From assembly GCA_900128565.1 (NCBI GenBank), contig LT635949.1, positions 1 through 34,852 on the forward strand: 34,852 nucleotides of DNA. Direction: 5' to 3'. Under the pieces are notes generated by a model. That model did not search any database and had not been told where the DNA came from. It was given only the letters and a program-made list of their open reading frames with translations. This DNA comes from Stramenopiles sp. TOSAG23-6. Its lineage: Eukaryota. The position numbers and the translations under genes are program-made. This document shows positions 2,949-30,465 of this stretch, piece after piece; the first letter of the stretch is position 1; every line of letters begins with the position of its first letter.

Positions 2949-3067
2949 CAAAAAAATGCTATGGAATGTCACAATGCGCACAACACTATTTGTAAAGCAA
3001 AATGATAAGAGATGAAATCATTAAATCTCCAAAGATTTAGTACAATAAATTAAATAAAAAGTATTTG

Positions 3068-3122
3068 ATATACATCAGTAACAATGACTCAATTTTATAT
3101 ACATCAGTAACAATGACTCAAT
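3068..3122. repeat. 26-nt direct duplication (period 29) in a convergent intergenic region
   Basis: ATATACATCAGTAACAATGACTCAAT occurs at 3068-3093 and 3097-3122. Confidence 0.9.
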
Positions 3123-3195
3123 ATAAAATGCATCAAAAAAAAACCATCTCTTAAAAATACTAGAATCCACATACAACATTGTCATCTACACAAAA

Positions 3196-5392
3196 TCATG
3201 CTCTCCCTGGACATTGAAACCCGTCGGGTCCACAAGCAACATTGTCATCTACACGGTATGTAAATCCTGGGTTTTCAACAGGCCAGACATGACTTCCACC
3301 AGCTGGCATTTTTGGAGCATCAACACATTCAGTACATTTCTTTTCTGGGTCTAAAGTTACTTTTACTCTTGCTTGATGATTACAACAAATACCTAAAACA
3401 TTCCATGTTGATGTCATTTTTTCTGGTTGAGAGTTAAAATCACCATCAATTGCATTTGTTACAATTTCCAACTCAACTTTTTCACCATTTCGAAGTTTTT
3501 CTTTTACATGATCCGGTAAAGCAATTTTTTGCTGAAACTGTTGCCATGCCCAGTGACTTCCCATGCCGGATTGAGGATTTGATCTCATAGCACAATTAGC
3601 AGAGTCTGGATTTTTGGCACGATCATTTGGTCTTTGAATAACCAATTCTCTCTTACTTCTTGGTATTCCGATGGGTCCACTAAATAACTCAGCAGCTTGA
3701 TAAGAATCACCTCCATCAATAGATACTTCAACACGACATATCCCACGACCACCTCCAGACCAAGCTACACCCTCTACAGTTACACTATCCATTTGACCAG
3801 ATAAAGTAGCTCTATCAGGAGGTTCTGAAATGACAGACTGGACAGGTAAAGTTTGAATTACAGGACCTTGATCGAGTCGAAGTTTATCTTCTCCTTCACG
3901 TATGTGACCTTTAAATGTTACATCTGGTGCAAAATGACGATCAAGTTTTGATCCAGAGTCCAACTCTGACGGAGCTTCAGTCAAAATAATTCTAGAAACC
4001 CACTTCACATTACGACAACCAGCATGTCCTGGAGCTAAGAGACGAATAGGGTATCCATGATCACGTGGTAGAGTTTCATCATTCATCTCATACGCAAAAA
4101 TTGTGGAAAAATATTTAAAAAAATAAAAATCGTTAGGTAAAAAATTTTCTTTGTAAAAACTTTGAAATTTTTTAAGTGGACAACATACAAGAATTGCATC
4201 ACCAAATGGATTTACTACTTTTTCAATAGGTATTACTCCAGCATACGGTGTCCCAGTCTCATCCTGGTCTTCTCCAATAAAATTTACTATTTTCACTTTA
4301 GAATGAGAAACGTTTCCTAAAGCCATATATTGTGAAAAAATATGTCGTACGTTTGAAATTTGTTAGGTACGAAAATTGGTACAAAAGAAAATAAATTTGA
4401 AATTAAGTGATAAAAACATACATACCATCTACATCTAAACCTGCAACACGAAATATATCTCGAACTTTTACACCCACCCATTTTGCACAACCAATTGCAC
4501 CACCGCGCCAATGAGGTGCGACATATAAAGGGCGATCAGGGGTGACATAATCTTCTTGTCGATTTCCAGCGCATTGTAAAGCAGATACGACTTCATGTCT
4601 GGGAAATTTAGTCTTGAGATCTGCAAGAGTTAGTTTTAATTCTTTCGTTCCTGCATCTTCATTTGCTTCAATCTCTAAAACATAATCTTCAATATCAACG
4701 CTGGGTACAGGATTATGATTACGTACAAAAAATAAGTCATTTGGAGTTAAAAAATCATTCACCAAAGCTCTAAGTGGCGGTTCCATATTCCAAGGTTTCG
4801 TTGATGGTATGCGCATTTCTGTTGCTTTTGGCCTTTCTGGATCATCCTTGTATGCATCTTCAAATTGAGACTCATTTTTGACAATGATGGCATCTTCAGG
4901 GGATAAACTACCAATCCTATAGTCTTCGAGTAACTCACGAATGTGAGGTCGGTCATGGATTTCGTGATATACCCGCCAAAAGGCATGCAAATCTTGACCA
5001 GAAACCATCATGATACGCATAGCACCACCAGGATGAGCATCCATAAAGTTAGTGACATCATAAACACCACCATTGAGACTGACCCAAACGCGACCTTCAG
5101 GTGCGTTGCGAAACTCGTCCAAGGAGAAGATTCGGTTCAATGTACCTTCTGGAGGAGCTCCACCCGAGCCAAAGGTTCCTGCAACAGGGGCATCATCACT
5201 AAAAGTATTTTGGTTGCTCACAACTGCTGCCGCGAAAGCAGCTGATCCTGCTGCTAATCCATATATACCAAATTTACGGAAATTTGACCTAGGAGGAGAC
5301 ACAATATAACTTAAAGAACGACTTCTCGGTAAAGATAATCTAGACCTTGATGCTGAAAGGTGTAGTCTGTATCCACTATGTCGTAACAACAT
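3196..5392 (-). CDS. Sulfite-oxidase-family molybdoenzyme with an N-terminal cytochrome b5 domain; 3 exons (5392-4422, 4324-4189, 4095-3196; about 668 aa)
   Basis: It has an Arg/Ser-rich mitochondrial-type presequence plus a hydrophobic stretch, and a b5 domain (GVYDVTNFMDAHPGG). The Moco domain shows FFVRNH, LQCAGNR, AYEMNDETLPRDHGYPIRL and RNVKW. The dimerisation domain shows GVAWSGGGRGICRVEVSIDGG. The two ORFs join in frame after removal of two related AT-rich inserts. Confidence 0.9.
4096..4188 (-). other. Non-canonical intron, GT...TT, 93 nt (family member 2)
   Basis: It starts GTATGTTG, contains TACCTAAC and ends ATATTTTTCCACAATTTTT. Removal restores the conserved GDAIL|AYEMN motif. 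Confidence 0.8.
4325..4421 (-). other. Non-canonical intron, GT...AT, 97 nt (family member 1)
   Basis: It starts GTATGTTT, contains TACCTAAC and ends ATATTTTTTCACAATATAT. It contains an in-frame stop, so it must be removed. Joining AT|G gives DGMALGNV. A GT-AG alternative (4425-4317) is also in frame. Confidence 0.65.
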
Positions 5393-5758
5393 TGATGATT
5401 TTTAATGATATTGTAGAGGTCTACACGAGGTTTTGACTAAATTATATACAGGATACAATGTTACAAAATGAATCGATTTTGAAAAGACACCAAAAATTTT
5501 TATGATTGTCGTCAGGTCAGGTAGATTTATTTATTTTTGTGGTGATCTCTTGAAGAAGACGACCGAAGTGTTTCAAGTTTGAATTCAAAAAAAGAAAGTT
5601 CCTGAAATTTTTGGTACGGAATATTGCTATGAAAAAATTAGCTCGCTCTCCATTTATTCATTGTTGGTGCCAGGACAATTTTCAAAAGAAGGAGTAAAGA
5701 AAATATTTGTTTTTTTACCGGTGTGTGAATTTCTCACAAAAGGAAAGTTCTTGTGGAA

Positions 5759-6437
5759 ATGAAAAATCGTGCAAAATTAGGAGTAGCATTATTATGTGCA
5801 TTAGTTGGATTTTTGATTTCCATAGTGGGCTGTATAGTTCCCTGGTCAAGAACGAGTTCAACCGTTGGAGGTTGTCGTTTCACAGGAGAATATGGTGTTT
5901 TGCAAATGTGTCTCGATGTGGAGTGTCCCGCAATAAAACAATATCGTTCTTGCGAGTCTACGACGAATGCACTAAAAGATTGGAGTGGTGAAGGGAAAAC
6001 TGCTTTTTCAAGAACAACATATGGCGCTCTCGCTTTATCTATAGTACGTCAAAATCCTTATCTCCCACCCTAACCCTAATCTCCCATACATTTCAACCAT
6101 ACCTAAAAAAAAATGATAACAATATAAAAGTCTTTCTATACACTAACAAAATTACAAATGCTTCCATTTACAATAACTAAAACAGCTTACCGTCACATTA
6201 TCAAGTATATGTATTGTACTAAATGTATTTTCACTGAGTTGCTCACCTGGACCTTGCTGGAAATGTGTTCACAGTTTTCTTGGTATACTCGGTGCGATAA
6301 CAGCAGGAACAGCTGTTATTCTTGCAAACGAATCCAATATTCTCCTTGTATTTTCTACATCTAACTCCAACCCTAATATTGTATCATATCTATTTGTATT
6401 CATTTTTGTTATTATTGATATATTGTCGACATTGTAG
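5759..6437 (+). CDS. Small four-TM membrane protein with claudin/PMP22-like topology; exons 5759-6043 and 6186-6437 (about 178 aa)
   Basis: TM1 is followed by PW...YGVLQMC...C...C, resembling the W-GLW-C-C loop. Splicing GTACGT...AACAG continues in frame (ALALSI|LTVTLSSICIVLNVF...) through further hydrophobic helices to TAG at 6437. Confidence 0.65.
6044..6185 (+). other. Canonical GT-AG spliceosomal intron, 142 nt
   Basis: GTACGT donor, CACTAAC and AACTAA branch-like motifs, and a CAG acceptor. It contains an in-frame stop, and removal restores the frame. It is A/C-rich and unrelated in sequence to the other four introns. Confidence 0.75.
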
Positions 6438-6659
6438 AATAAACACTACACCTTTAAAGGAATTCACGTAACAACATTTAGTCCGTACATTAGTTTTTAT
6501 TCTATGTGTTGTGTTTCTTTTCTTTTAACGTGTAGTGGTTTGCTAACATGGCATGCCAATTTAAGAAAAAATAATCCAGAATATATTCCAGCTTTTCAAT
6601 ATGCACAGTTTCAGCCTTAAGTGGAGTAGAAAATGAAACTGAATAATGAGAGAAAGATG

Positions 6660-6714
6660 AAAAAAACCTAAGTTTCTTTAGGCACAAAATTTCGTATGAA
6701 AAAAATAAATTTGA
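6660..6714 (-). mobile_element. Degenerate intergenic copy of the internal part of the non-canonical intron family
   Basis: The minus strand reads TCAAATTTATTTTTTTCATACGAAATTTTGTGCCTAAAGAAACTTAGGTTTTTTT. It aligns by eye with the ThrRS intron core TCGAATTTATTTTTCGTACGCAATTTTGTACCTAACAAATGTTAGGTTTTTTT at 45 of 53 positions plus a 2-nt gap. Confidence 0.6.
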
Positions 6715-7005
6715 TGAGTGTACAGTTGAAGAAAATATTTTTACCAAACCTTCATCAATTTTCAGTGGAAGAATCTCCTATATAATAAAAAAAATAATAT
6801 TTGTGTAAAGTTCTTTTTGTTTTACCTTTATTATAATCACAACATCTTATTACTTTATATGAACAAATTTTACGTTTTGTTGTGCTTTCCGGTACAAAAA
6901 AATGTGTTTTTCATAATTTTCTAATAATTAGAAGTATAAAGTAGCAATATCGTCTTGCATGAACTATCACTCTTGTGAATAATAAATTTATAAATTTGTC
7001 ATACA

Positions 7006-7557
7006 TTATTCATAAATACCTACAATTTCAACAGAACCATCTGCATTCACACGGGTTTTCTTAATCCGTTTCAACTGCTTTTTACTCATTTTCTTAATTT
7101 TTTCAACGTTTGTTATAGTTTGATAAGAACTATTTTTAAGCTCGTTTAGTTTTCGCCGTTTCTCTTGTTCCGCTCTTCTTTCTCTCTCTGCGACACGTTT
7201 TAACCTTTTTTTCTCTTTGATTTCATTTTCTAAAGTTTTCATTTGTTTCCTCAGTTTGTTTGCTGCTTGTTTCTTTTCCCATAAAGCTTTACTATTTGCT
7301 ACTTTTTTCCTACCTGCGGCAGAAGATCGACGTGGTTGCTTCCGTTTCCAATGACGATCACTGACACACTTACCAATAGTTTTATTAGTGGATACATCAA
7401 TCGCAGCAACAGATTGAACTGCGTATGGTCTTGGTAATACTTTACCTGTACTTGCTTTAACATCACATAGTGTTCCATCAGGAAATTTTCTCTCTCGATA
7501 TGTAGGTGTCTTGGTAACTTTGGCAGTCACGTTATCCTTTGAAGTCACTGGAGCCAT
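7006..7557 (-). CDS. CCDC86: CCDC86/Cgr1-family nucleolar coiled-coil protein
   Basis: GKCVSDRHWK resembles GKPKSGRxWK. It is followed by WEKK, a basic coiled coil ending RRKLNELK, and QTITNVEKIKKMSKKQLKRIKK. Confidence 0.75.
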   Translation of the reverse strand: MAPVTSKDNVTAKVTKTPTYRERKFPDGTLCDVKASTGKVLPRPYAVQSVAAIDVSTNKTIGKCVSDRHWKRKQPRRSSAAGRKKVANSKALWEKKQAANKLRKQMKTLENEIKEKKRLKRVAERERRAEQEKRRKLNELKNSSYQTITNVEKIKKMSKKQLKRIKKTRVNADGSVEIVGIYE

Positions 7558-7944
7558 GATGTTATGAATTGTATTTTAACTGAAGAATGTATTTAAGTAT
7601 CTCTCTACTATAATATACTTTTGGAGTGGGTCGTAATGTCACAATAACTTCTTGGTGGCGGGGAATCCCAATACTTTCTTGCAGGAATAGTACTTTTCAA
7701 GATGTAGAGTGTGTGTGACTGTTCTTAATTAAACTGGATAGATTTTGAATGTTACCGGGTACGCAAAATGTAACGTCCTGAAATCTGACTACCTCTTTAT
7801 CTATCTATATCTCGTTCCAAACATTTATGTGGTTGGTATAACACAGAAAGTAGTTTGCACCAACGTAATAATGTACTATTTCACCAACATTACCAAATAA
7901 TAGACACAATACAATTGTTCTATATAGACAAACAAAATCATATT

Positions 7945-9048
7945 ATGACATCAAGGTACCTTCCACCAGACATAACTCACTCGACAACAACAAAAAACTT
8001 TCAAAAAAATCATTTTCGTTTATTAGAGGTTTTGGAGGCTACTGTACTAGAAAATGAGGCATTGAAGACTGAAATCTACAATATACACACTAGAGCCATT
8101 GAGACTATTAAAGAGGAGAATAAAAAACAGAAACTTTACAATATTGATAAACAAATCCTTTTGGAAAAACATAATACCTCATTGTCAAAGGAGATAAATG
8201 AGAAAGGCGACTTACAGCAGAAACTAGACATACTTAAAGAAAACCTAAGAATGCATGAAACAAAATTCTTTACTAAGCAAAATGAATGGCATGCAAACAC
8301 AAAGACACTTAGTGACGAAATTTCTGATTTGCGAAAAAAGCTTTGTAATAAAGATAAAAACATTGAAAAGTTATTAGAAAAAGTGAAAAAAGATAAAAAA
8401 AAACACAAGGAAAAAAATTGTTTATTATGTGAAAAAAAATCACAAAAGTTTCTTCTTCTAAAAGAAAGCAATGCCACATTAGAATTAGAGATGTCTAACT
8501 TATTGGTTCAATATAATAGTGTTGTAGACATAAAAAATGAGTTAGACTTTGAGTTAAAAGAAACATTAGAAAAGTTTAAAAAAACTGAAAAGGAATTGAA
8601 AATATTACAGATAGAAAAACAAAAATTTGAAAAAGAAGTAAAAAGATTACGCTTAGAAAAACAAAATTGTACATCAAATTCAGAATCTTCAAAAAACAAT
8701 GCTACATTGTCTAGTATCCCACCTCCACCAAAATTTCAAAAACATAATAACTATAAAGGAACAATTACAGGTGCTAGAATAAAAGAAAGTCAAATTCTTG
8801 GGGAATTAGCCTCTTTAAAGAATGAAAATTTCCACTTGAAACAGAAAAAAGGATATTTTGGAATACGCCATTTACGTGAAACAAAAATGACGATGAATCC
8901 ATTTGCGGAACAGGAATCAATGTATACATCTAAAATATCACTAAATAGTATGACAACTAAGTCTAAGAGAAAACATGAACGCTATAGCGATAAAAATGTT
9001 ACAAACATTGTAGGGAGTAAAATACTAGACGAATTACTACAACGATGA
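7945..9048 (+). CDS. Lys/Glu-rich coiled-coil protein, function unknown
   Basis: Long heptad-rich ORF. The first in-frame ATG is at 7945 (MTSRYLPPD); the ORF track starts at an upstream TTG. Confidence 0.7.
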   Translation: MTSRYLPPDITHSTTTKNFQKNHFRLLEVLEATVLENEALKTEIYNIHTRAIETIKEENKKQKLYNIDKQILLEKHNTSLSKEINEKGDLQQKLDILKENLRMHETKFFTKQNEWHANTKTLSDEISDLRKKLCNKDKNIEKLLEKVKKDKKKHKEKNCLLCEKKSQKFLLLKESNATLELEMSNLLVQYNSVVDIKNELDFELKETLEKFKKTEKELKILQIEKQKFEKEVKRLRLEKQNCTSNSESSKNNATLSSIPPPPKFQKHNNYKGTITGARIKESQILGELASLKNENFHLKQKKGYFGIRHLRETKMTMNPFAEQESMYTSKISLNSMTTKSKRKHERYSDKNVTNIVGSKILDELLQR

Positions 9049-9254
9049 TTTAGATGTGTGAAAATTTTATATGAGAAAAAACATCCAAGTAAGCAAATAA
9101 TTGAAAACCAATTTATTACATTTCATCATAGCGTTTTTGAAAGTAATAAAACATAAATTAAATTGTAGTTTTTAATTTGGTACATTGACAAGCATCATGA
9201 ATAAAATAAAAGAATTGGTATATGGTCATTTATGCAATTACTTTACACACTGAT

Positions 9255-12200
9255 TTATGAAATTGGAGCGTCTGCCAAATTACTACGACATGAACCAGCA
9301 GTAGTTAGTAATGGTTTTCCTTGCCACGTAGCAACACATTCATCATTCGTTTTCAAATCTTTTGCCATTGCTTCCCACAATTTTTTCTTCTTCACTTGGC
9401 TTTTTGTTGCTGGAGTACCACTCAGTCCTTCAATAAATATGCGCTCACCATTCGCTGCACCAACAGGAGGTTCCACAAATTGAACTGCGTCGCCTAGTTT
9501 TGCACATAATACCATTCCCTCACTAGTCACACCAGCTAATTTTGCAGCTTTCAAATTTGCAACTACCAATACTTTTCGTCCTTCCATATCACTTACTTCT
9601 GGATAAAACTGTCGAAGACCTGAACTGATTGATCTCATACCAATTTCTGCTCCTAAGTCAATTTCTTCACACCATAATTTTTCAGAATCAGGATTTGGCC
9701 AAGCCTTTGTTATCGTTCCAACACGTATGTCAATCTTTGTAAATGAATCTTGATTTGGATCAGATGCTACCTTTTGCTTTTTCTTTCCTTTATTAGCATT
9801 TTTGTCACCTTTTTGAATGAGTTTTGCAGCTTCTAGGAGAGCAGATGGTTGTTGAGGTTTATCACAACATTCTTGCTTCATATTAGTAATTATTTGTTCA
9901 ATCGTTTTAACTTCTTGTCCATTTGTACCACGAGGACGAACCGCAGCCGACTTAATTGACATCTCAGCATCGCCAACTATTAAAATATAGTTATATTGAG
10001 CTAGAGACGCCTCACGAATTTTTTTTGGAAACTGTTTTGATGATAAATCTACGGAGACATGAAATCCAGCCATGTGTATTTTCTCCTTTACACTTCGAGC
10101 ATAATCATAATGAGCTTGAGCAATAGGGACAACCATAACTTGACGTGGGCTTAACCAAAGCGGCCATTTCCCACCATAATGCTCAGTAAGTATTGCAAAC
10201 ATTCGTTCAACAGACCCAAGCATTGCACGATGAACCATAACTGGTCTTTGAAACCCAGGAGCAGCTTCAGGATTTGAATTGGGTAAATTTTTATAAACAC
10301 CGCGACAAGAGGAGGATGATTCTGATTTCTTTTTTTGTTTCTTTTCTTTGGATTTTTCATTATCTGATTTTCGAATTTGTTCACCTGTACGATATTGTAA
10401 ATCGAAACGAATAGGTAGATTAAAATCTAATTGTACTGTAGCACACTGATGAATTCTGTCCATACAGTCAAATACTTTAATGTCAATTTTAGGACCATAA
10501 AATGCACCATCCCCAGGGTTATCTTTCCAATTGCCTTTTCCAGCAAACTCATCTAAAGCATTTGCTAATGACTCTTCAGCATCATCCCATCGTTTAAGTC
10601 CTTCAGGAGTATCAGCACCAACTGCTTTTTTAGGTCGAGTACTACGCTCAAGTTTAAATTTCATACCAAAAATAGAGTATACAGCTTTCATAAATTGAAG
10701 TGAACCAACAACTTCATCTTTCACTTGTTCAGGGGTGCAAAATATATGTGCATCATCTTGCTGGAAACGTCTGACACGTGTCAATCCAGTTAATGCACCA
10801 GAACGTTCATTACGATGTAAAACACCAAAATCAGCCATTCTGATGGGCATTTCTCTGAAAGTTCTGATTTGTTGACGAAACATTAAACAATGTCCAGGAC
10901 AATTCATTGGCTTCAAGGCAAATTCATCCTGATCACTTGTATTAAATAAAAACATATCATCTCTGTAGTGCTGATAATGACCTGAAATTTTCCATAAATC
11001 AGTTGAAAAAATATTCGGTGTAACAACTTCATCATAACCGCGCTGCCAATATTCATTTTTTATGAAATCGATTAAAGCATTGTATATACGAGCACCATGA
11101 GGAAGAAAGAAAGCTGATCCTGGAGTTAAATCATGAAAGAAAAATAATTGTTGACGAGGCCCAATGCGACGATGATCATTCATTCTTTTCAATTCCATCA
11201 CAGCTTTCCATTTTTTCATTTCTTTTTTATCAGGGAATGCAACACCATGTATTTTGGAAAAATATTTCAAAAAAAAAACCTAACATTTGTTAGGTACAAA
11301 ATTGCGTACGAAAAATAAATTCGAAATTGAAAAAAAATAAAACATACATATACACGCTGTAGTGAGTCACATTTTTCATCACCCATCCAATATGTTGCAC
11401 TATGTTTTATAACATCCATACACGTAATTGAAGAGGTTGTAGGCACGTGTGGTCCCATACATAAATCAATAAATGGTCCATTTTTGTACACTGTCGTAAA
11501 TGTATTATCTGTGACTTTTGTTCTTATAATTTCTAATTTAAAGGGATTATACTCAAACAACTCAAGTGCTTCAGCTTTAGAAACAATCATTCTTTCAAAC
11601 ACTTGTTTTTCTTTAATTGTTGTAGCATTTCTCTTGCTTAGTACCTGGTACCACTTTTCTTCTGTGACAACGTCTTTACCTACAAAAGCATCATAATAAA
11701 AACCATTTTTTAGTGGAGGACCAATGGTCAAGACAGCACCGAATTCACGCTCCATACTTTGACCTAGAATATGAGCTGCAGAGTGCTTAAATGTTGTTTT
11801 ACCCTCTGGTGTACTGTAATTATGAAAAATAATGTCACAATCGCCTTCTAGTGGTCTATTTAAGTCCCACAACTCAAATTCTTGTTTCTCACTGGCGGTA
11901 GTTGTATCCATCTCGTCTCCACCAGCCTCAGCCATCATTTCTTCTTCAGCGTGTGTCACAATATCAGCACCATATCTTACACCAGTATAGCGAACTTCTG
12001 CAACAAGTTGACGTTTAGCCATTTGTTTTGAAATGTTTAATGCAATCATCATTGGTGTAGTTTCCCACGTTGTTCCAGGGTGAGTCTTCTTATCTGGCAT
12101 GGTGACTGTCATTGCCTCCCGTGGTTTTTCAAGAAGACGTTTTTCATACGCAGCTTTTACACGATTATATACATCTTCACGAGCAGCAATAAACTGTGGC

Positions 12201-12397
12201 GATTTACACCCAGAATAAGAATCGCCTCCAATTTTACCTTTAGATTGAAGAGTATGGACTTGACCTTCGACAGCACGGTCTTTGTTGACACGACCTAATG
12301 TGCTCTGGAGCACATGGACATCCCCACTGCTCACTTTCAAGCGAGAAAGTTCTGCTTCCAATTCAGCAATACGTTGATCTCTTTCGTTTGGCGTCAT
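9255..12397 (-). CDS. TARS1: Cytosolic threonyl-tRNA synthetase with a C-terminal EMAPII-like tRNA-binding domain; exons 12397-11348 and 11246-9255 (about 1013 aa)
   Basis: TGS region (WETTP, LWDLNRPLEGDC), editing domain (HSAAH, GFYYD, DLCMGPH), LQRVY|GVAFPDKK across the intron, and DHRRIG. Catalytic motifs are LKPMNCPGHC, GLTRVRRFQQDDAH, GAFYGPKID and HRAMLGSVER. The anticodon domain is followed by IDIRVG...NLKAAKLAGVTSEGMVLCA. Confidence 0.95.
11247..11347 (-). other. Non-canonical intron, GT...AT, 101 nt (family member 3)
   Basis: It starts GTATGTTT, contains TACCTAAC and ends ATATTTTTCCAAAATACAT. It shifts the frame and contains a stop. Exact removal restores LQRVY|GVAFP. Confidence 0.8.
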
Positions 12398-12624
12398 TTT
12401 GCACTACCAAAGATAAGACAACAATCTGAGAATTTACTCAAAAGAATAATTGGATTATTGTTTATTACCTATGCGCGAGTAAGTAGTATATACTGCGTGC
12501 GTGCGTGTTTACGATACACGTGTGTGAGTGGTAGCTGAACTAGTTTTTTTGCCATTATTGGCCCAGCAGTTTTGTGCCAATTGAAAAGAAAAAAAAAAAA
12601 ATTTTATTGTTTTACAATAATGTT

Positions 12625-14106
12625 TTACATTTTCATTGCAAGTAAAAACTCCTCATAACTAATCACTCCATCAGTCCCACCATATTTCTCAAGCATTTGT
12701 GTTGCCTCTGTAGAGTCAAATTGTGATCCCAAAACTTCTTTTAAATTTTTTTTTGTAATTTGACCTGAGTGATCAACATCTAACATATCAAAGGCCTTTC
12801 GTAATTTTGTTTCATTCATGAACATTTTTCTAGCTATACAGGATGAAACAAATTCTGAAACTTCAATCAATCCATCACCTGAAATATCCACGGCATCAAA
12901 TATTTTTTTATATTCATCATCATCTAAAACATTTATATTTTGTGCTTTCAGTGACATATTTATAGAGTCTCTTAATTCTATTAAAGACACAAAACCATCA
13001 TGATTTTTGTCCATATTTATGAAATGTTTTTGAATGCATTCAATTTGTTGCGGGTGTAAGGTAAATGCTACTGTCGACACAATGAGTTGCTTTAATTTAT
13101 TCATATTGCTAAAGTTTTTCATTGAATCAAAAACTTCTAATGGTAATGGTGTAGGTGGGTGTTCCTGCTCTGCTTTCATTATCCAAGTATCGTTCAATGC
13201 TTCTGCTGCAGTTGGTCGAAGATCTGGATCAAATGTGAGAAGTCTTCTAACAAAATTTTTCGCATCTGTACTAATTCCATTCCAAATATCTGCTTTACGA
13301 GAAAAACTAAATTTTCCACGTTTTATCTTACTTAAGATAATTTTATCATTTGGACCTGGAAATGGCGGACTACCACTCAATATCATAAATGTTATAACAC
13401 CTAAACTCCATATATCACATTTGTAATTATACATTTTCTGTAAAGCTATTTCTGGAGCAATATAGTACGAAGTGCCAACCATATCCTTCATATTCGAATC
13501 ACTAGAATTCTTGATTTGTTTTGCAAAACCAAAGTCAATCAGTTTTAATGGTGAACTTTCACTTTTGTTTGCAAAAACAAAGTTTTCTAATTTTAAGTCT
13601 CTGTGAACAATATTTTTACTATGGAGGTAATTAATCGAGCTTAACATTTGCACTACCAATTTTGCTGCCTTATACTCCGTCAAGTGACCAGATTTCGAAT
13701 TAGCCAACCTTTCAAATAATTCACCACCACTGCATAGTTCCAACACCAAATATAAAAATCGATTTCTTTCGTTATAGGTCTCGTATAATCTTGCAACATT
13801 TGGATGGTCTGTTGCACTAAGCAAAGCTATCTCGGATCTTATTGCTTTAAGTGCATCAGTACCAGAAGCCATATATAAAGAAGCACAATTCATGACCTTT
13901 AGAGCAAACTGTTCCCCATCTGAACGTCTTGTGATTATCTTTACTTGACCTGATAAACCTTCACCTAATAACTCGAAACTATCAACACCACTATATAATC
14001 TACGGATATTAGCATATTTACCTTTACCATACTTTTTATTGGCTACAAGATTTTCATGCATTGTTGTTGTCTGGGTCGTTGCAACTTTAGCACTACAAAT
14101 TCCCAT
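12625..14106 (-). CDS. Calcium-dependent protein kinase (kinase plus four EF-hands) with a probable N-myristoylation/palmitoylation site
   Basis: MGICSAK N-terminus; kinase motifs GEGLSG, ALK, ELCSGGELF, HRDLKLEN, DFG and GTSYYIAPE. A junction helix precedes EF loops DKNHDGFVSLIE, DISGDGLIEVSE, DVDHSGQITKKN and a degenerate GTDGVISYEE. Confidence 0.92.
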   Translation of the reverse strand: MGICSAKVATTQTTTMHENLVANKKYGKGKYANIRRLYSGVDSFELLGEGLSGQVKIITRRSDGEQFALKVMNCASLYMASGTDALKAIRSEIALLSATDHPNVARLYETYNERNRFLYLVLELCSGGELFERLANSKSGHLTEYKAAKLVVQMLSSINYLHSKNIVHRDLKLENFVFANKSESSPLKLIDFGFAKQIKNSSDSNMKDMVGTSYYIAPEIALQKMYNYKCDIWSLGVITFMILSGSPPFPGPNDKIILSKIKRGKFSFSRKADIWNGISTDAKNFVRRLLTFDPDLRPTAAEALNDTWIMKAEQEHPPTPLPLEVFDSMKNFSNMNKLKQLIVSTVAFTLHPQQIECIQKHFINMDKNHDGFVSLIELRDSINMSLKAQNINVLDDDEYKKIFDAVDISGDGLIEVSEFVSSCIARKMFMNETKLRKAFDMLDVDHSGQITKKNLKEVLGSQFDSTEATQMLEKYGGTDGVISYEEFLLAMKM

Positions 14107-14334
14107 TTTATGGGGTATACTCTATCTCGATTTATTGATATTTCTTATCACAGCTGTAGCAACTCATTAGAAATGTATACAGCAGTACGATTATTCATAC
14201 TGAGCAAATATCAGGACATTACTTGAGTAGTGCATGCGGTAGTTCTATTGTTTTATTTCATTAATATAATCTATAGATCATAGCTTCTACAGCAATAGAT
14301 TGTAACTATCTATACGTAGTAGTAAATTTCTCCG

Positions 14335-14377
14335 ACTATTAATGTTCTACTACTATTAATGTTCTACTACTATTAAT
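14335..14377. repeat. 17-nt tandem repeat, about 2.5 copies, upstream of the CDPK
   Basis: ACTATTAATGTTCTACT at 14335-14351 and 14352-14368, plus a partial ACTATTAAT. Confidence 0.9.
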
Positions 14378-14538
14378 ATTGTATCTAGTCCAAACGGAAC
14401 TACTAGCTAGAGAACGGTCTGTCCGTTACGAAGACGTTCCGAATTTTGAAATCCATATTCCTATTTATAAATCATTTGAAAACAAAGCCACAAAAAAAAA
14501 AGATGATCAATTATTTTTCAAATTCAAATTTATTTTCA

Positions 14539-17500
14539 TCAAGTAGAAGATTCACCACCTAATCCTAATAGAATACCCTTAGCTGCAGTAAATGTTAACT
14601 TGCCAGAACCATTTCCACCACTGCCAATATCGAGTAATTCTCTAGCATCATATATATCCACCTCATGTCCTAATCCACATAACCAATGTTTAAGCTCATT
14701 TGCTGTCATATAACCATCACCATCTGTATCACATAGATTAAATGAAGTTTTCCATTTAAATTCAAGTCTTTCTTGTTGTGTCATTGCATCCAGTATTTCG
14801 TGCGGATCATACTTCTCCTCATTTTCATCATATGATGAATCACTATTTGTGTCAATACTATCATTATTATTTTCAATACTATTATTATTAACATCGACAC
14901 TATAACTATTTGTGTCAATATTATTAATATTTTCAATATTATTATTATTATTAATATCGACAGTATAACTATTTGTGTCAATATTATTATTATTTATATC
15001 GATAGTATCATTATTTGTATCTGTACTATCATTTTTGTTTTGTTGATTTCTGACATGTTGCTGTATTACAATAGCTGCTCTATTTCTTGCTCTTTCTTTG
15101 ACATTTTCTATTTCTTGACTGAAATCCAAAAAAAAGTCATTTTGATTGATATTAGTATCATCTATATCATGCATAATGTTATTATTATCAATGTCAATTA
15201 GATCATTATTTTCAATAGCATTCATATTATTATTATTATCAATACTACCCATATCATTATTAACCTCAATATTATTATCATTATCAACATTATTAATTTT
15301 ATCGGCATAAGCAGTTGTAGCTATTAAAATATTTCTCTTTAATCGAACCATTTTTTGTATTTTTCTCACCGAACAAATTTCTAATTTGTTGAATTTGGTT
15401 TTATACTTTATATCCAATGAACATGTTACGAAATCTTCATATGAAACCATACCAGAATTAAATGTATCAAAATTCTTGGCTAATTGATTAATTTCTGGTA
15501 ATGACAAGAAATCCATTAATATTGGAGTTAGGACTTTACAAAATGTTTTTGTTGGAAGAGCCCCAACACGTTTCATGGGGTCAATAGAGTCAGTACAACG
15601 CAGTAATTTTCGCATATTTATACCTCTAACTCTCAAAAATGCAGCACCGCTGCTTAATTTTTGGAGAAGTTCATTTGTATCAATAGTATCATCATTCTTA
15701 TCAATAGTATTATTAATTGTAGTCTTTTGTTTTGATTCATCAGTCATATCTTTTGTAGAATCTAAAGAAAATGTGACATTTGTTGGACTATGCAGTCGAA
15801 TTTTTCGTGTTCTCCGAGCCTTTTGTGCTTTTTGTCGAGCAATTGCTAATTCTATTTCTTGAGTATATTGACCACGTAGTCGATCTCTTTCTAAACGAGC
15901 AGCATTTATTTTGTCATCAGCAAATCCAACACGACCTCCTCCTCGCGATGCTCGCTTTTTCATTTTGACAAAATTTCGTGTTTTTGCTGCTCTGTATGTA
16001 CTCTGTATAACTATTGCTGCATTGTTATGATTATTTATCGTGCGTTTTTTATCATATTGTTTATATAATGCTTGTAATGTCACTGCAACCTTTAATCTGG
16101 CATGTGTGCGCAATATATATTTGTGGCAGGTTTGACCAATAATTTGACTTGCATTTTTGTGTGTTTTGTGTTTTTTGTTTTTATTTCCTTTTTGGTCTAC
16201 CCTTTCATCATCATCATATTCAATACTGCTACCAGAGGCCAGGTCATTTATTGTATTGAGTTCATTTGGTGTATTACTATTTAAATCAACCACAGCAACA
16301 ACTACATTTCCTCTCTTGATAGCTTCAGATTTCTGAAGGACTTTCATTGAATCATTATGCCCTTTTTTAATATCATATCTCGCACAAGCAGTTTTACGCT
16401 GATAATCTCCTTCGCGTTTTCTCTCAATTTTAATAGTGGCAACCTTGCGACAAGCAATTACTATTCGTGCGTATGTCTGTATTTGAAGTGCACTGCGATT
16501 TTTATGTAGCATATCTTTTCGAACAGCCGATGCACGAATTATTCTTTGTAGTAATAAAGCTGCTTTATTTCGTGTGCATAATGTTCCACGAGTCAATCGA
16601 CCTCTGTGAAAACTTTGTAAGCGTATAGCAGCTATAGTTTGTTTTTGTTCATGCTGCTTCAATTTTTTACCAATGTTACGTGTCAAATAACCCCTTCCAA
16701 TACTTTGTATCTGTATTGCCGAAGTAATATAATCTGAAGAATCCAAATAATTATTATTATCATGAATGTCATTTTCCACTGTCTTCTGTATACTGTTATT
16801 ACCATGAATATCGTTTTTCACTGTCTTTTGTATATTATCGTTATCATGAATGTCATTTTTCATAGTCTTTTGTATATTATTATTATCGCATGTGTTTTGT
16901 ATGCTTTGTATGCGTTTTTTTGCTTGAGGAGATCGTCCAGGATACGGAACAGGCAAATCAGATTTTAGTGCTGATTTTAGTGCTGATTTTTCTTTAACTT
17001 TTTTTATTTTTTTTAACTTTTTTTCACTTTTTTTTTCACTTTCTGCTTTTTCTTCAGTCTGGTTTCTAGACTTTTGTTCCGATTGTGCAGATTTGACGAT
17101 TGCATTTCTTTGTTTTAATTTTGGTGCTTCTGTTTCTTCTGTTTTACTTCGTGACTTTAATCTTTGCTTTTGCTTTGTTCGCTTTAATCGTTGGTGTCGT
17201 ACAGGAACTATTTTTTCTACATTATTTTTTTCCTTATTTTTCGTTGATTTTATACTTTTTATTTTTTTTTTGTTTTGTTTTTTTTGTTTTGCTGAACTTT
17301 TAATTTTTTTCTCGGTTGATTCTACTTGCAAAATATCAGTATCATGACCGAGAAGACCAGTGTGTGAATTTATAATTTCGGTCCATTCAACATAGCCATC
17401 ATTATTAATATCTGTCACAGTTACAGTCATTTCAGCATCTAGCTTACTTTGCATTTGCCATTCATCCATAATCTCATTAGACAAGCTTTTTACATATAAA

Positions 17501-20500
17501 TTGACTGTATCTTTGATTCGGTCATAATTTGGTATTTCCCCATACTCAGTCTGTTTATTAATTTCAATAATTTGATTCCGTAGTTTTTGATATTTCCTGC
17601 AAGCGCCAATACATTTTTTCATATATAAAAATATCATAGTAAACATATCAACTGCATGATTAATTTGCAATTTACCTTTCCCATCCTTATTATAAGATTG
17701 CCAAATTGGTCTTAATTCAGAAACTCGTAGTTGTCCTAAAACACTAAACTTCAAACTTTTCATGCTTTTTGCATTTTGCGAAATTCGCGCAATGGCTGGA
17801 AGAAGTGCAGAAGTCAGTACGTCTTCATAATCACCAAATATTGTACTATAACGTGAATTATCATTCTCATTAATATTATCTTGTGTTGATTGAGGAAACT
17901 GCTCTGTACTTGGAGCATTTTCATCCAAATTTATGATTTTCAAATTTTGTAATTTATCTTTCTTTAATAATGCGACTTTTCGAAGATTTACTGCTTCTTC
18001 TGACCAATCTTCTACATGGAATCCAGCTAAAGCATGTTTTAATCGAAGGCGATCACCTACTCTTCGAATACCTAATTTTGTACTTAAAATATGATCGATA
18101 TAAACATCTCTCTCGCTACCAACCTTTTCATTATGTAATATATTTTTTGTTTGATCACCGATGATACCTTTTCGATCATCTATATCTGTACCTAAGATTG
18201 ATGCCTTCATTGCAAGTAAAGCATCAGAAGTAATGTTATGTTGCCAAAACTTTGATATAAAACTTGACATATTTAGCGATGATAAAAACATTTCCACAAT
18301 GACATCTCGAGGATGTACGACTGATGGTGATGGTTCAACTGATGGTTCAACTGATGGTGGTAGTGTTTGAGCATCATGTCTCTGTAATGATGCCACCCTT
18401 CTTGCTCCACTTGCGCTTTTTATTTTTCTACTATTTTTCTTACTTATCAAAGCAGATGATGTTTGAGGGCGACGTCCCAGTGGAATATTTGTCCCTTTTC
18501 GTGGAACATATATCTTTCTCTCTTTACCATTCTTCTTCGAATTATTTTTTCTATCCATCAGTGAATAAGATTTCGTGGTCTTTACATTAGGTTTTTGCCT
18601 AATTTTTCTTTCTATCTCAACTGTTGAGAGTTTCAAAAAGTTTTCTAAATATTTCAAATTGGCTGATGAAGGATCACCATGATTTCGGAGTAATAATAAA
18701 GTATACGGATTTTGTTTTTCATTACTATATTGATAAGGACTTTGCAACGCTGTCCTAATATTTATACTTGAATCACGTTCATTTATAGTACGTTGTTGTG
18801 ATGTATATCGCGTTGGTTTGGCTGAGTATGGTCTACGTTTATATTTATTGCTTTGTTTTTTGTGTACTGCAGAAAATGGTCGAGGTTTTCGAATTATTTT
18901 TTTTTTCGTGCTTTTCTTCTTTATTTTAATACCCATTGGCTCTATATTATTTTTTATCGCTTTCCCCATTCCAGATGAATGATGCTTGGCTATATTTTTA
19001 TTTTGTATCCTTGACATAAATCGATTATAATCAGCTCTACGTATCGGGGAACATTGTCGCCGGGATGTGTCAGTTAATTTAATAAAACTGCTATCTGGTG
19101 TTTTCAACTGTTCATTTTTTCCTTTTGTTTCTTCAGTACTTTTTCCTTTTGTTTCTTTAGTACTTTTGTTTATATGACTAGCTGTTGTTTTTTCATACTC
19201 AGGTGGAACATTAAGGCTTAGAGAAGTTATATCTGGCGTAGAAACAGGTTTATCCATAGCCATTATTGTCATATACGGATTTTCATTATTTCCGTTCTTT
19301 CCTACTCGTGGTCCTACAAGTAGTGTTTGTGGTACCAGAAATTCTGCATCGTGCATATTGCCATCTGGGCCCTTTACAGGAATTCGTGACTTATGAATAT
19401 TATTCCAAGATGTTTTCAATGGAGGAACAAAGCTATCATTATTTGTATGTGCTTTTTTTTTATTTCTCTTTTTTTGTAGATCTTTTGATTTTTTTTTAAC
19501 TTTAGTCCGTTTCTTAAATATTTTGTTTCGGAACACTTTGTAACGCTGATTAACAGTTTTCTCATCAAGATATGATTTACCTAGTTCTTTCAACATACTT
19601 TTCTGTTGTTTCTTATGCCAATCTGTGTTTGCTTTTACTTCAGTGATTAATGAGAGACTTTGCGACATAACATTACTATGATTGATATCTGGTGTTACTG
19701 CAAAATGAATCGTCCCATTTTTATTTAATACATCATCTGCACTTGATTTGACTGGCGTAAAATCACCTAATTGATTATTGACTTTATCAAACATTGGTGT
19801 TTTTATTTGTTTCATTGGCACTTTTGTATATTTTAATGGCGCTTTATATTTTATTGGTGATTTTGTTTGCTGTATTAGTGTTTTTCTTTGTCGAATTGGT
19901 GACTTCGTTTGTTTTATTGATGATTTTATTGGTTTTACTGATGATTTTACTTGTTTTACTGGTGATTTTTTTTCTTTCAGTTTTTTTATTGACGTTTCCA
20001 TGTCATTTGAGTTACTTTCAATGATATATTTTTTCCAGTTAGGAATATTTTGTTGTAGTGCATCTAATCCACGCATAGGTCTTGGATCAACATATTTTGT
20101 ATTATCAGAATCTGTAGTATTCTTTGCAACATCTGTAGAATTATCATTCTCATTATCTATTGTATTATTATTCTCAACATCTATTGTATTATTATTCTCA
20201 ACATCTATAGTATCATTATTCTCAACATCTATAGTATCAGTATTCTCAACATCTATAGTATTATTATTCTCAACATCTATAGTATCATTATTCTCAACAT
20301 CTATAGTATTATTAGTAACACTTTCAGAATTGAGAACTGCTTTCTGCAACGTTTCGGAGACAATACTTTTATCTGCATTAGTTTGTGTAAGTAAATTATC
20401 TGAAAGATGTATTGCAAGTGCCTGTTCATGCATGGCTTTTGCTTCAGAAACTCTACCAAGTTTTTCTAATTGACTGCCATGACTATGATAAGCAATTACT

Positions 20501-21405: not shown

Positions 21406-21715
21406 TATTCTAATATATGACTGTGCATATATCTATAATCAAATGTTAAAGCAAAATGGAGAAAGTGAATACAATTCAGAACAGAACCTTGCGTATAACA
21501 ACGTGGTAGTAAACTATTAGTAATTTTTACTCTAGCTACTGGTACAAGCCTAATAACACTATAACGCTAATAATTGGTAACGGCCAAAAAATAAACGGAT
21601 GAACAAACCGAACAAACCTGTTGTTCTCTTCGATTTTGAAATTGAATGAAATGAAATGAAAGAATTCAATTTGATTTACTTTAGTTGATCTTTTACTAAT
21701 GCCAACATCAACACA

Positions 21716-24726: not shown

Positions 24727-25975
24727 ATGGCGAAGGGACATGGTCTTAATTCATGCTACTTGGCAATTTATTATGCAACGTTATCAATAGTTTGGTTAAG
24801 CTTAGCAGTATATGCTTCATTATTTTACGAAACTTATGAAGAAAACTGTTCCGCGACTTGTCCGCTTGTTACTTTAGATGTTGCCTATGTTAATGAAAAA
24901 ATTGCAGCAGGGGACCAAAGAGTAATAGACTTCTATGGTGGTGCAACATATAATAATGATCCAATTAATACAGTATCTTCAAAATTTTGTTACAGATCGG
25001 GGGCAATATGTCTTAAAAAACCTGAGACCGATGGACAATTGCGTAACCAGTGCGAAGTTTACAGTGAAATTTATAATCTGACAGCAGCAGACGCTTGGAA
25101 ATACAAGTGCTTGATTTGCGATGAAACCAATCAGTCTAGAGTCTTATGGCCTTCTTTAACAACATCACTAGAGAGTTTTTGGAACGTAGCACAACCTTGC
25201 GGCGAAGTAAGTATAGTACCTGGAATACCAGAGACGGATATCCCCACAGCGCTTTTTCCAGATATGCCAATCGACTCTCGTCAAGAAAAAGGCTATTTCA
25301 GGTATCCATTCGGTGTAGGCGATTATACAATGTGTTATAACTTTGATGAACCAAGTGATTTCTGGATTACTGTAGCAAAATTGTCTCTTAAAATTTCTAT
25401 TTATATTTTTTTCATTAATTCAACTTTAGGTTTACTATCAGCGGCGATACTGGCAACGTTTCATAAAGTACTTTTAAGCGATTGGAATAGACTGTCACTT
25501 CCCAAGCAATGTGCTTCATACTTATTGACAATTATGATGAAATTACTTAAAATTTCATGGTTGATTGGTTTCTGCGTTTCCTTTATTGCTTTAGGTACTA
25601 ATGGATTGGATAAAACTTGCGTTTTTCAAGAAACTGAATTAGGGTCCGTTGATGTTTATCCAAAGGCAGAAGCGTTTTGTTGGGCCTCATTTATTTCTTA
25701 TTTATTAGTACTCATCTATCGTAATTTTAGAAGGCAAGATATTGTGTGTTGTCTATTTTAATTTCAAATATATTTTTTTATTGAAAATTTCTAACCTGAC
25801 GAATTTCAAACTTATAACATATTTTCTTACTATACTTATCGGTGATGTGCAGTTTATGTATATACCATATGAACTATCGCCAGTTAGATCTGATGATAAG
25901 TGTGACTGTGGAAGTTTCTATCGTGTTTTTTTACAACCATGCTTTGTATATTTTGAAAAATATGTCGGCCCATAA
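24727..25975 (+). CDS. Multi-pass membrane protein with a Cys-rich luminal loop; exons 24727-25743 and 25838-25975 (about 384 aa)
   Basis: N-terminal TM, a Cys- and N-glycan-site-rich loop, then three further hydrophobic helices. The two overlapping ORFs join in frame once the family intron is removed. Confidence 0.7.
25744..25837 (+). other. Non-canonical intron, GT...TT, 94 nt (family member 4)
   Basis: It starts GTGTGTTG, contains AATTTCAAA and AACCTGAC, and ends ATATTTTCTTACTATACTT. Cutting at the end of the 19-nt block gives the in-frame join RQDI|IGDVQF. A CAG at 25850-25852 is an in-frame alternative. Confidence 0.55.
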
Positions 25976-29319: not shown

Positions 29320-30216
29320 TCATTCTAGACCGTCATCGTACTCTTGTTGTTCGTTTTTCTGTTGAAAATCAACAGAAATATTCTTGTTTTCACTCGCCAT
29401 ATGTAATAAAGTGATTTTTCTCGCTAGCATTTGTGCCTCGACTTTGGCTTTTTCTTGTTCACTTTGCTTTTGTTTTTTATTTAGCGATTTATTATACACT
29501 ACATAATCTTTTTCAGTATTTGAACAGGTAAGAGAAGAACCATTATATTTAAAGAATTTTTTAGTTTTCGATTGCAGAAAAGAATTCATGACACTGTTGA
29601 TATTGAGATATTGAACCATGATATGATGCATTGACTGTTTTTTTGCGATAAGTGTCATTAACTGAAAGAGATGTTTTCCTAAACCTTTGCGCTGATAGTC
29701 GTCACGGATCTGAATTTCCTTCACCAACAAACACGATTCACCAGACATTTCATTATACAAAGCCCCTTGAAGCGTAAAGCAAAGGGTTGCGTATCCTATT
29801 ACCTCGCGTCCAGGTAAAGAGTTATCGAAACATACAATGTGCCGAGTAGATTTCTCCTTCAAATCTTCTTCTTTATCTTCATCGACCCATTCGAAGTTAC
29901 CAGCATAAATAGGCTTCATATTATCCTTTGTAATCTCTAAACAAGTATCACAAATGTCTTCTTCTTTTCTCATTAAACTCCCACTGAAAAATTCTAAAGA
30001 AATATCCAAATTATTCCTTCGATATAAACAAAAAGGTTGGAAGTCATTTAATACATTGCGGTCTGTGCCATCTGAGTTAAATAAAGCTGCTCTTAATGAA
30101 ACAAGGAATTCCTTTGGTGTCTTCAACTCCTTCGAAAGCATATTCGTTGTTTTCCCACCCCCACCTCGAGATTTCCCACTACCGCCTTTTGAACATTTAC
30201 CTCCACCAGATGCCAT
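29320..30216 (-). CDS. NAA40: N-alpha-acetyltransferase 40 (NatD)-like GNAT
   Basis: PFCLYRRNNLDISLE, ITKDNMKPIY...W..EDKEEDL, and EIQI..DYQRKGLGKHL (acetyl-CoA motif) follow the NAA40 pattern. Confidence 0.75.
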   Translation of the reverse strand: MASGGGKCSKGGSGKSRGGGGKTTNMLSKELKTPKEFLVSLRAALFNSDGTDRNVLNDFQPFCLYRRNNLDISLEFFSGSLMRKEEDICDTCLEITKDNMKPIYAGNFEWVDEDKEEDLKEKSTRHIVCFDNSLPGREVIGYATLCFTLQGALYNEMSGESCLLVKEIQIRDDYQRKGLGKHLFQLMTLIAKKQSMHHIMVQYLNINSVMNSFLQSKTKKFFKYNGSSLTCSNTEKDYVVYNKSLNKKQKQSEQEKAKVEAQMLARKITLLHMASENKNISVDFQQKNEQQEYDDGLE

Positions 30217-30465
30217 ACTACAGTCGATAAATACACCTACTAAGTAACTTTCCTACTTTAATGAAGTATTTAGTCGCTATTTAGTCGTCGAAACTCGAAA
30301 AGTTGTTTTTTATATCAATCAATTGGTCAAAAAATATTTCAGACTTTGATTGATTGATTGCTTACTAGGGTTAGGGTTCAAAAAGAAGTGCTGGCACCAC
30401 AACAAAAAGTGTAAAAAAAGCAGCACTCAATTTATTTCAGACATGTTATTGATACTTTAATCAAA

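Follow-up and report, generated by a model that had tools for sequence, protein, structure and literature searches.

A 101-nt insert divides the gene for threonyl-tRNA synthetase (ThrRS) in Stramenopiles sp. TOSAG23-6. The gene occupies positions 12397..9255 on the minus strand of contig LT635949.1 (assembly GCA_900128565.1), and the insert lies at 11347..11247. Here, 'the window' refers to the whole stretch of DNA that was analysed, 34,852 nt in length. The insert looks like a copy of an introner, that is, a member of a transposon-derived intron family. It carries a 5′ splice-site-like GTATGT and a branch-point-like motif, but no AG at the border where its removal restores a conserved protein motif. 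The insert is probably removed exactly, at a 3′ end other than AG; the place of the cut in the RNA is one that we infer.

The insert in the threonyl-tRNA synthetase gene

Read on the minus strand, the sequence around the insert is CTA CAG CGT GTA TAT / GTATGT...TACCTAAC...TGTTAG G(T)10 GAAATATTTTTCCAAAATACAT / GGT GTT GCA TTC CCT, where the slashes mark the borders. The motif TACCTAAC precedes a T10 run and TTTTTCC, so a branch consensus upstream of a pyrimidine tract is present. The 3′ terminus of the insert is ...ATATTTTTCCAAAATACAT, of which the last bases are CAT, with no AG. The frame of exon 1, continued into the insert, meets a TGA at codon 27, and exon 2 lies in a different frame. Read-through is therefore impossible, and the frame shift and the stop claimed in the original prediction are both present.

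Exact removal of the insert fuses LQRVY to GVAFP. In PDB matches, the alignment of exon 1 stops at Y219 of Escherichia coli ThrRS (1qf6) and at residue 218 of the Staphylococcus aureus enzyme (1nyq). The match of the downstream frame to 1qf6 starts at query residue 5, which is chain residue 213, and this places the G (query residue 12) at residue 220 by offset. The original prediction had called the LQRVYG segment highly conserved and proposed an alignment to orthologues as a check. The motif LQRxYxxxF keeps its L, Q, R, Y and F invariant in 50 of 50 aligned ThrRS sequences. In a MAFFT alignment that included both conceptual products, Y is directly followed by G, S or A in all 11 stramenopile homologues (approximately 56–62% identity), with no residue in between. 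In the AlphaFold model of homologue P0003, residues 332–341 (LQRVYGVGF) form a single continuous β-strand followed by a helix, with a mean pLDDT of 94 over the blocks spanning 331–350. By homology, the conserved motif sets the ancestral junction exactly at Y/G, and in this model an insertion of 11 residues would divide the strand.

The left border shares AT and the right border G (direct repeat ATG). Because border bases are shared, AT..AC, TG..CA, GT..AT and TA..TG all yield one identical mRNA. The boundary had originally been fixed at GT...AT. The Y/G junction behind this proposal is borne out by homology, but the pair is not unique, and labelling the insert GT..AT is a choice rather than a fact. 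No border pair that restores LQRVY/GVAFP ends in AG, as sliding offers AC, CA, AT and TG only. With regard to the GT..AG class, the 5′ GT and the branch consensus are present, whereas the AG is absent at the frame-restoring 3′ border. Together with the flanking AT (to 11349), the insert reads ATGTAT...ATACAT.

The host gene is intact. Exon 1 corresponds to the N-terminal and editing domains of bacterial ThrRS, and exon 2 matches the catalytic and anticodon-binding domains of human, yeast and bacterial enzymes including that of E. coli, with E-values down to 5e-149 (PDB). The domain set is complete, with TGS, editing, class II core and anticodon-binding domains all found. Precomputed Pfam assignments for the near-identical protein P0001 are PF02824, PF07973, PF00587, PF03129 and PF01588. 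P0001, labelled as a MAST-3-type marine stramenopile, is the top protein match and is identical to the window frames wherever it has sequence. The next-best matches are other stramenopiles, including MAST-4 and Incisomonas entries.

We also notice PDB matches to AIMP1/EMAP II at residues 489–667 of the downstream frame (window 9258–9800, minus strand; the last ~180 residues of ThrRS). The fusion of ThrRS with PF01588 occurs in the ten closest homologues (P0001–P0011 minus P0008, which is partial) and is absent in most other ThrRS matches.

The stretch, of approximately 35% G+C and densely packed with long unbroken frames over the window, is recovered repeatedly. Three DNA runs of organism A contain 0.94–0.99 of its sampled words, and four further runs from other samples and years contain 0.60–0.98. 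We compared the window with the strain in X6, an independent marine DNA run, for which 40 of 67 differences were listed. In ThrRS, seven of the nine listed differences are synonymous, with K>R and A>S making up the rest, and the single listed indel has a length of 9 nt and keeps the frame. For the oxidase gene described below, four of five listed differences are synonymous. Both ThrRS exons are under purifying selection. The dominance of synonymous differences in both exons indicates that each is translated in its own frame, so the insert must be handled at the RNA level. No strain difference falls at the insert borders among those listed. The 9-nt deletion in the X6 strain lies at 12306, near the ThrRS N-terminus, in a coiled-coil-like extension.

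A family of similar inserts

The original prediction overlooked that the insert belongs to a repeated, transposon-like intron family. We built an nhmmer profile from three copies, namely the ThrRS insert and two inserts (SOX_A and SOX_B) in a sulfite-oxidase-like gene, and ran it over the window. Five places were found, with E-values of 4e-21, 5e-21, 1e-17, 1.6e-8 and 1.3e-5, giving a density of five copies per 34.8 kb. They comprise three full copies, one diverged full copy and one partial copy of an element of ~95–100 nt (Table 1). ThrRS and an orphan gene host one copy each and the sulfite-oxidase-like gene two, one copy sits at a further locus, and four of the five copies lie on the sense strand of the coding frame.

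The three full inserts align at 73% mean column identity. From the alignment we read four common blocks: GTATGT; AATTTCRAA; ATTTT-N1-2-TACCTAAC; and ATATTTTTYCAMAAT followed by exactly 4 nt. The window contains three instances of the arrangement GTATGT-N35-65-TACCTAAC, where shuffles lead one to expect 0.01; each is on the minus strand and inside a gene. All three occurrences of TACCTAAC on both strands of the window sit in copies of the element. The 3′ block (ATATTTTTYCAMAAT/ATATTTTTCCAAAAT) has three exact matches, all in elements, and one further match with one mismatch elsewhere, against 0.25 expected. This block is the best-kept part of the otherwise diverged copies.

Direct repeats of 2–4 nt, different from locus to locus, border all four full-length copies, although four copies are too few to tell a duplicated target from a target preference. 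Inverted ends of 6 nt (ATGTAT/ATACAT) are seen in the ThrRS copy only. The distance from the branch A to the exact end is 43, 38, 37 and 43 nt in the four full-length copies. None of the four has an AG at the border of exact excision. An internal AG is present in the ThrRS copy alone, being absent in SOX_A, SOX_B and the diverged copy. A further copy in X2, an RNA-library run, was read from gaps in a contig as TACCTAAC-GA-T run, again with no internal AG.

The host of SOX_A and SOX_B is a cytochrome-b5/molybdopterin sulfite-oxidase-like gene (Pfam, PDB). Exact removal of SOX_B gives DAIL/AYEMND, to be compared with DVLL/AYEMNG at residues 270/271 of chicken sulfite oxidase. In this alignment L58 is printed as chain residue 270, and A90 is 271 by offset from the printed T87 (268). 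Only exact removal preserves the AYE of the conserved L-AYEMN-G block. The next AG, at 4088–4087, is found 9 nt inside the exon; its GAG/ context is poor, and its use would remove AYE. An empty site is therefore seen by homology at two insertions, in all 11 homologues for ThrRS and in chicken sulfite oxidase for SOX_B; these are distant homologues, with no same-species empty allele among them. At 4185, the X6 strain has GTACGT in place of GTATGT as the SOX_B donor (10.2 of 17.7 summed depth), and a second difference lies at 4173 in the same insert.

The diverged copy lies at the end of an orphan membrane-protein gene, where exact excision (94 nt) and a CAG at 25852 (109 nt) are both in frame. 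The protein encoded by this gene matches no Pfam family, and no homologue was found for it at E ≤ 0.001. The partial copy reads CTTAG/G where the ThrRS copy has TGTTAG/G, and is without the 5′ and 3′ blocks of the family. It lies within a 91-codon open frame (6637–6777, minus strand), in a bin where X6 reaches a depth of 1,070.

In X6, the summed depth on the ThrRS element ranges from 2,084 to 59,814 against ~6 on the flanks, a difference of ~10^3-fold, although summed depth is not copy number and the element is partly of low complexity. Hundreds of contigs diverge at 11246–11247 and 11349–11350. The element sequence is highly repeated, and in view of these two limits we claim no more than this. 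At 11282, in TGTTAG, the depth falls to 2,084, approximately one tenth of the 29,847 and 21,050 found 3–4 nt to either side. This dip suggests that most copies differ at the internal AG. The sense-strand copies, the border repeats and the pile-up in X6 together make the family introner-like.

A pattern scan of metagenome contigs for more copies gave five loci, none of which, by eye, has GTATGT or other family blocks; we rejected them as family members and take them as chance matches. Neither viral contigs nor contigs of prokaryote genomes gave any match when scanned for the element.

Table 1. Positions in the window of the ThrRS exons, the parts of the ThrRS insert and the other copies of the element.
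Feature	Positions	Strand	Description
ThrRS exon 1	11348..12397	−	ATG-started open frame, 350 codons, MTPNERD...DSLQRVY; N-terminal extension, TGS and editing (N2) domains
ThrRS exon 2	9255..11246	−	663 codons to 9258, stop 9257–9255, GVAFPDKK...APIS; class II catalytic core, anticodon-binding domain, C-terminal EMAP-II-like tRNA-binding domain (PDB matches)
ThrRS insert	11247..11347	−	101 nt; excision joins Y to G; nhmmer family match 11348..11245, E 4.4e-21
5′ splice-site-like GTATGT	11342..11347	−	consensus-like; in 3 of 4 full-length copies, GTGTGT in the fourth
Branch-point-like TACCTAAC	11289..11296	−	branch A 43 nt before the exact 3′ end, 10 nt before the internal AG
Internal AG (TGTTAG/G)	11280..11281	−	only AG past the branch motif; in frame; would retain 33 nt (VFFLKYFSKIH)
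Conserved 3′ block ATATTTTTCCAAAAT	11251..11265	−	pyrimidine tract and CAMAAT; always 4 nt ahead of the exact-excision end
SOX_A	4325..4421	−	97 nt by exact excision; repeat TATG; sulfite-oxidase-like gene; nhmmer E 4.9e-21; canonical alternative 4425..4317
SOX_B	4096..4188	−	93 nt; repeat TTG; ends TTTTT; nhmmer E 1.1e-17
Diverged copy	25744..25837	+	GTGTGT...CTAAC...ATACTT; repeat TT; nhmmer match 25743–25835, E 1.6e-8
Partial copy	6637..6734	−	middle of the element only; nhmmer match 6714–6658, E 1.3e-5

Candidate routes of removal

We propose that a short, non-autonomous, transposon-like element of ~95–100 nt may have inserted into the sense strand of the ThrRS coding sequence, duplicating 2–4 nt of target. 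A 5′ splice site (GTATGT), a branch site (TACCTAAC), a pyrimidine tract and the conserved 3′ block (ATATTTTTYCAMAAT) would all come with the element. Together with one copy of the target repeat, the element would be removed exactly from the pre-mRNA, giving ...LQRVY-GVAFP.... The 3′ cut would then fall 4 nt past the CAMAAT block and 37–43 nt past the branch A, at a non-AG site. The 3′ site would be set by this element-borne block, not by an AG.

Several lines of reasoning favour exact removal. The insertion points in ThrRS and SOX_B lie in invariant strands, where retained or deleted residues should hurt. Under an AG rule, copies with no internal AG would be cut at random exonic AGs, a rule that an element common in coding sequence could hardly afford. 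The element is common in a genome whose sequence over the window is mostly coding, which suggests that its insertion is near-neutral, as would be expected if it is exactly removed. The motif argument alone does not fix the splice site, since the insert resembles a transposon insertion and its exact removal restores the motif whatever the real splicing. Somewhat more tentatively, we suggest that the element may represent a stramenopile intron class of perhaps thousands of copies, derived from one miniature transposon. Its 3′ site would be set by the CAMAAT block at a fixed 4 nt, independently of AG, and would have coevolved with the introner invasion.

A number of observations weigh against removal at a non-AG end. 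A major spliceosome of the GTATGT/TACTAAC type is not known to act at such a 3′ site. Among the 15 joints listed of 63 from the mapping of assembled contigs, none equals 11246/11348 and none crosses any insert. The original inference that the non-AG junction is functional thus gains from the intact ThrRS and from the lack of any GT..AG pair that reproduces the junction, whereas its use in mRNA finds no such joint among those listed. Where contigs of X2 and X5, both RNA-library runs, extend into the inserts, these are unspliced. Measured against exact excision, the first AG past the branch keeps the frame in three of four copies (+33, −9 and −15 nt), and that of the remaining copy is also in frame if an upstream overlapping GTATGT is the donor. 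The chance of at least three in-frame AGs in four is ~0.11, and the pattern is expected if AG splicing is real and out-of-frame insertions are purged. SOX_B is a multiple of three in length and stop-free in its host frame, so that its read-through would be a 31-residue insertion ahead of AYEMN. Only five copies are readable, all within the window, and the depth in X6 carries the limits given above. The introner classes described in the available parts of bioRxiv 10.1101/2022.06.06.494994, 10.1101/2020.10.14.339549 and 10.1101/2021.10.25.465678 have AG as the 3′ site throughout. As a side observation, four of the 12 frames of the four full-length copies are stop-free, the T-rich element being often open.

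The unspliced contigs are record 12 of X2 (3943–4724), record 18 of X5 (4127–4529) and record 15 of X2, which runs from 12433 into the ThrRS insert to 11289. The depth of X2 and X5 is flat, ~5–10, across eight genes and their spacers (window 1–14500). Because it is flat over the spacers as well, we think that these contigs are DNA and thus uninformative on splicing. We also notice that X2 and X5 contigs end at 12427–12433, ~30–36 nt upstream of the ThrRS ATG, and are thin over 7526–7805 between two divergent genes.

In both ThrRS and the oxidase gene, the poly(A) run X10 covers only 3′ parts. None of the loose ends of this run (10476, 10737, 10997 and 11407) coincides with an insert border, and they look like transcripts of a relative. 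We searched transcript-derived proteins with the downstream frame (370–1180 amino acids) and with its first 200 residues (110–350 amino acids), and found none near-identical except the gene model P0001; the best other proteins in these searches are 60–71% identical. A regular-expression scan of the window for yeast-like introns matched only inside long open frames, and gave no certain canonical intron as a control.

Canonical splicing at the internal AG is the first alternative to be weighed. The intron would be 11347..11280, 68 nt in length (GTATGT...TGTTAG), and VFFLKYFSKIH would be kept between Y and G; the last 31 nt of the element and 2 nt of the target repeat would stay in the mRNA. As originally claimed, this is the sole AG between the branch motif and the junction, it is in frame, and it adds exactly these residues. 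It leaves exactly 33 nt with no stop, and lies in a good TAG/G context 10 nt from the branch A. There is a precedent in an Aureococcus introner that adds 12 nt, or four residues, in the available part of bioRxiv 10.1101/2022.06.06.494994. The in-frame first AG of three of four copies also speaks for this route. The public gene model P0001 uses the same AG, but this lends little weight, since the available part of PMC5778133 describes the gene pipeline as homology-based and ab initio. On the other side, the 11 residues would land midway along a 10-residue β-strand, beside residues invariant in 50 of 50 ThrRS, and none of 11 close homologues has an insertion at that place. The internal AG is not a family feature either, in view of its absence in SOX_A, SOX_B and the diverged copy and of the X6 depth dip at 11282. 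Applied to SOX_B, the AG rule demands the poor GAG/ acceptor and costs the AYE of a conserved motif. We consider this route unlikely, though it deserves real weight.

We also tried a twin-intron scheme, in which removal of an inner intron would create an AG. By eye, the remainder after removal of GT..AG (11280) still ends in CAT, and the scheme was rejected.

Exact removal might instead proceed by a route other than the major spliceosome, either as an AT-AC intron (ATGTATGT...AAATAC) processed by a minor spliceosome or one that tolerates AT-AC, or by excision guided by the border repeats together with the terminal inverted repeat, a mechanism proposed for the non-canonical Amoebophrya introners. 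A 2-nt slide of the borders gives AT...AC for the ThrRS copy, whose ends ATGTAT and ATACAT are inverted repeats. In Amoebophrya, according to the available part of PMC7789003, RNA-seq indicates that introners are removed at non-GT-AG sites. Against the AT-AC form, the 5′ end ATGTATGT is unlike the U12-type RTATCCTT, and no TCCTTRAY box lies 10–20 nt from the end. The nearest look-alike, TTCCAAAAT, ends 4 nt from the border, and SOX_A and SOX_B would be AT..AT and TT..TT. Against guidance by a hairpin, the four copies, folded together with their flanks, score no better than shuffles (z −1.87, +0.76, +0.22 and +1.34), and the four copies share no end-to-end stem. The strongly kept GTATGT and TACCTAAC point to recognition of the U1/U2 type. 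A route of this kind appears improbable.

Finally, the insert might not be usefully removed at all. In this case the ThrRS copy would be disabled by a recent transposon hit, or the insert would be an assembly artefact, and another gene would supply the cytosolic enzyme. The unspliced RNA-library contigs agree with such a scenario. In contrast, the stretch is recovered across runs (0.94–0.99 and 0.60–0.98 of sampled words), the exons are open over 350 and 663 codons, and the strain differences are largely synonymous (7 of 9), with the indel in frame. We regard a disabled copy as very improbable, and removal of the insert at a non-AG 3′ end remains the reading that we favour.

Known introners, neighbouring genes and consequences

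In several respects the element is like the introners of algae and dinoflagellates (Aureococcus, Micromonas, Pelagomonas and Chrysochromulina), as far as the available parts of the sources describe them. Many similar short introns lie in unrelated genes, their border repeats resemble target duplications, their inverted ends are short (seen here in the ThrRS copy alone), they carry partial splice signals and insert in the sense direction, and excising the element with one repeat restores the coding sequence. The difference lies at the 3′ end. In those introners the AG comes from the element or from the duplicated target, whereas the duplicated target here consists of AT, TAT or TT (plus G), without a border AG in any of the four copies. 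Introners are expected to have canonical sites supplied by element or target; in the present family the 5′ and branch sites are supplied and the border AG is missing in all four.

If the AG at 11280 were used, the ThrRS copy would be like the Aureococcus sp. introner that adds 12 nt (bioRxiv 10.1101/2022.06.06.494994, Fig. 2F; source available in part), since both carry both sites and leave an in-frame tail. Even so, the tail would be of 33 nt and 11 residues instead of four residues, it would lie in an invariant β-strand, and the internal AG is missing in other copies.

The introners of Amoebophrya have 3–5-nt direct repeats over their borders and 8–20-nt inverted repeats, are shown by RNA-seq to be removed at sites other than GT-AG, and hampered gene prediction (PMC7789003, available in part). 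As far as that source goes, the present family is like them in being repeated, in its border direct repeats and in the lack of a GT-AG pair at the borders that restore the mRNA. The present family retains GTATGT and TACCTAAC and is predicted to form no significant hairpin; the Amoebophrya elements, in contrast, are without conserved 5′ and branch signals and depend on inverted repeats that form hairpins. Their host is a dinoflagellate, whereas the present host is a stramenopile.

Two further systems depart from AG. U12-type introns tolerate non-AG 3′ ends set by the distance from the branch site. One of the four border pairs of the ThrRS insert is AT...AC, but neither U12 box is present and the older copies are not AT-AC. 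In tunicate genomes most introns are non-GT/AG, with changed U2AF and small nuclear RNA function (PMC13326754, available in part). This is a precedent for lineage-wide splicing without AG recognition; as far as that source goes, it concerns an animal, it involves no single repeat family, and its 5′ sites are also non-canonical.

A literature search gave no description of this element family or of peculiarities of MAST-3 introns; survey species lists and the assembly and annotation supplements of PMC5778133, which lay outside this search, could bear on novelty. In the available part of PMC5778133, introns and splicing are mentioned in two method sentences, none of them on MAST-3 introns, and PMC12614181 has no mention of 'intron' or 'splice'. 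The element is best filed as a new introner variant, namely a transposon-derived intron family with no AG at the restoring border.

The gene model P0001 joins across the ThrRS insert as LQR/VFFLKYFSKIH-GVAFP, through the AG at 11280. Internal parts that the window keeps open and conserved are missing from it, such as those following VRYTG, FHNYS and KFKLE, and it appears to contain spurious introns. Gene finding restricted to GT-AG seems to fail on this genome.

Near ThrRS, the frame at 12628–14121 (minus strand) encodes a calcium-dependent protein kinase (Pkinase E 2.5e-67, with EF-hand pairs). It ends ~230 nt upstream of the ThrRS start codon, and an MGICSAK near its own start looks like an acylation signal. 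Positions 14542–21432 (minus strand) form one open frame of 2,297 codons, whose sole Pfam match is to EF-hands at the extreme C-terminus. The frames at 3–2945, 7789–9045, 29323–30252 and 30415–32133 have no Pfam family.

Introners are the best-supported source of new introns. Among the introner families described in the available parts of the literature, 3′ ends elsewhere obey AG, save for the poorly understood elements of Amoebophrya. A family with perfect 5′ and branch signals and no AG at the motif-restoring border would bear on how the second catalytic step selects its site. If the AG at 11280 were used after all, an essential synthetase would tolerate 11 transposon-encoded residues in an invariant β-strand, which would also be unusual. 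Such inserts disrupt open reading frames and defeat gene finders that accept GT-AG only, so that genes may be undercounted in this lineage.

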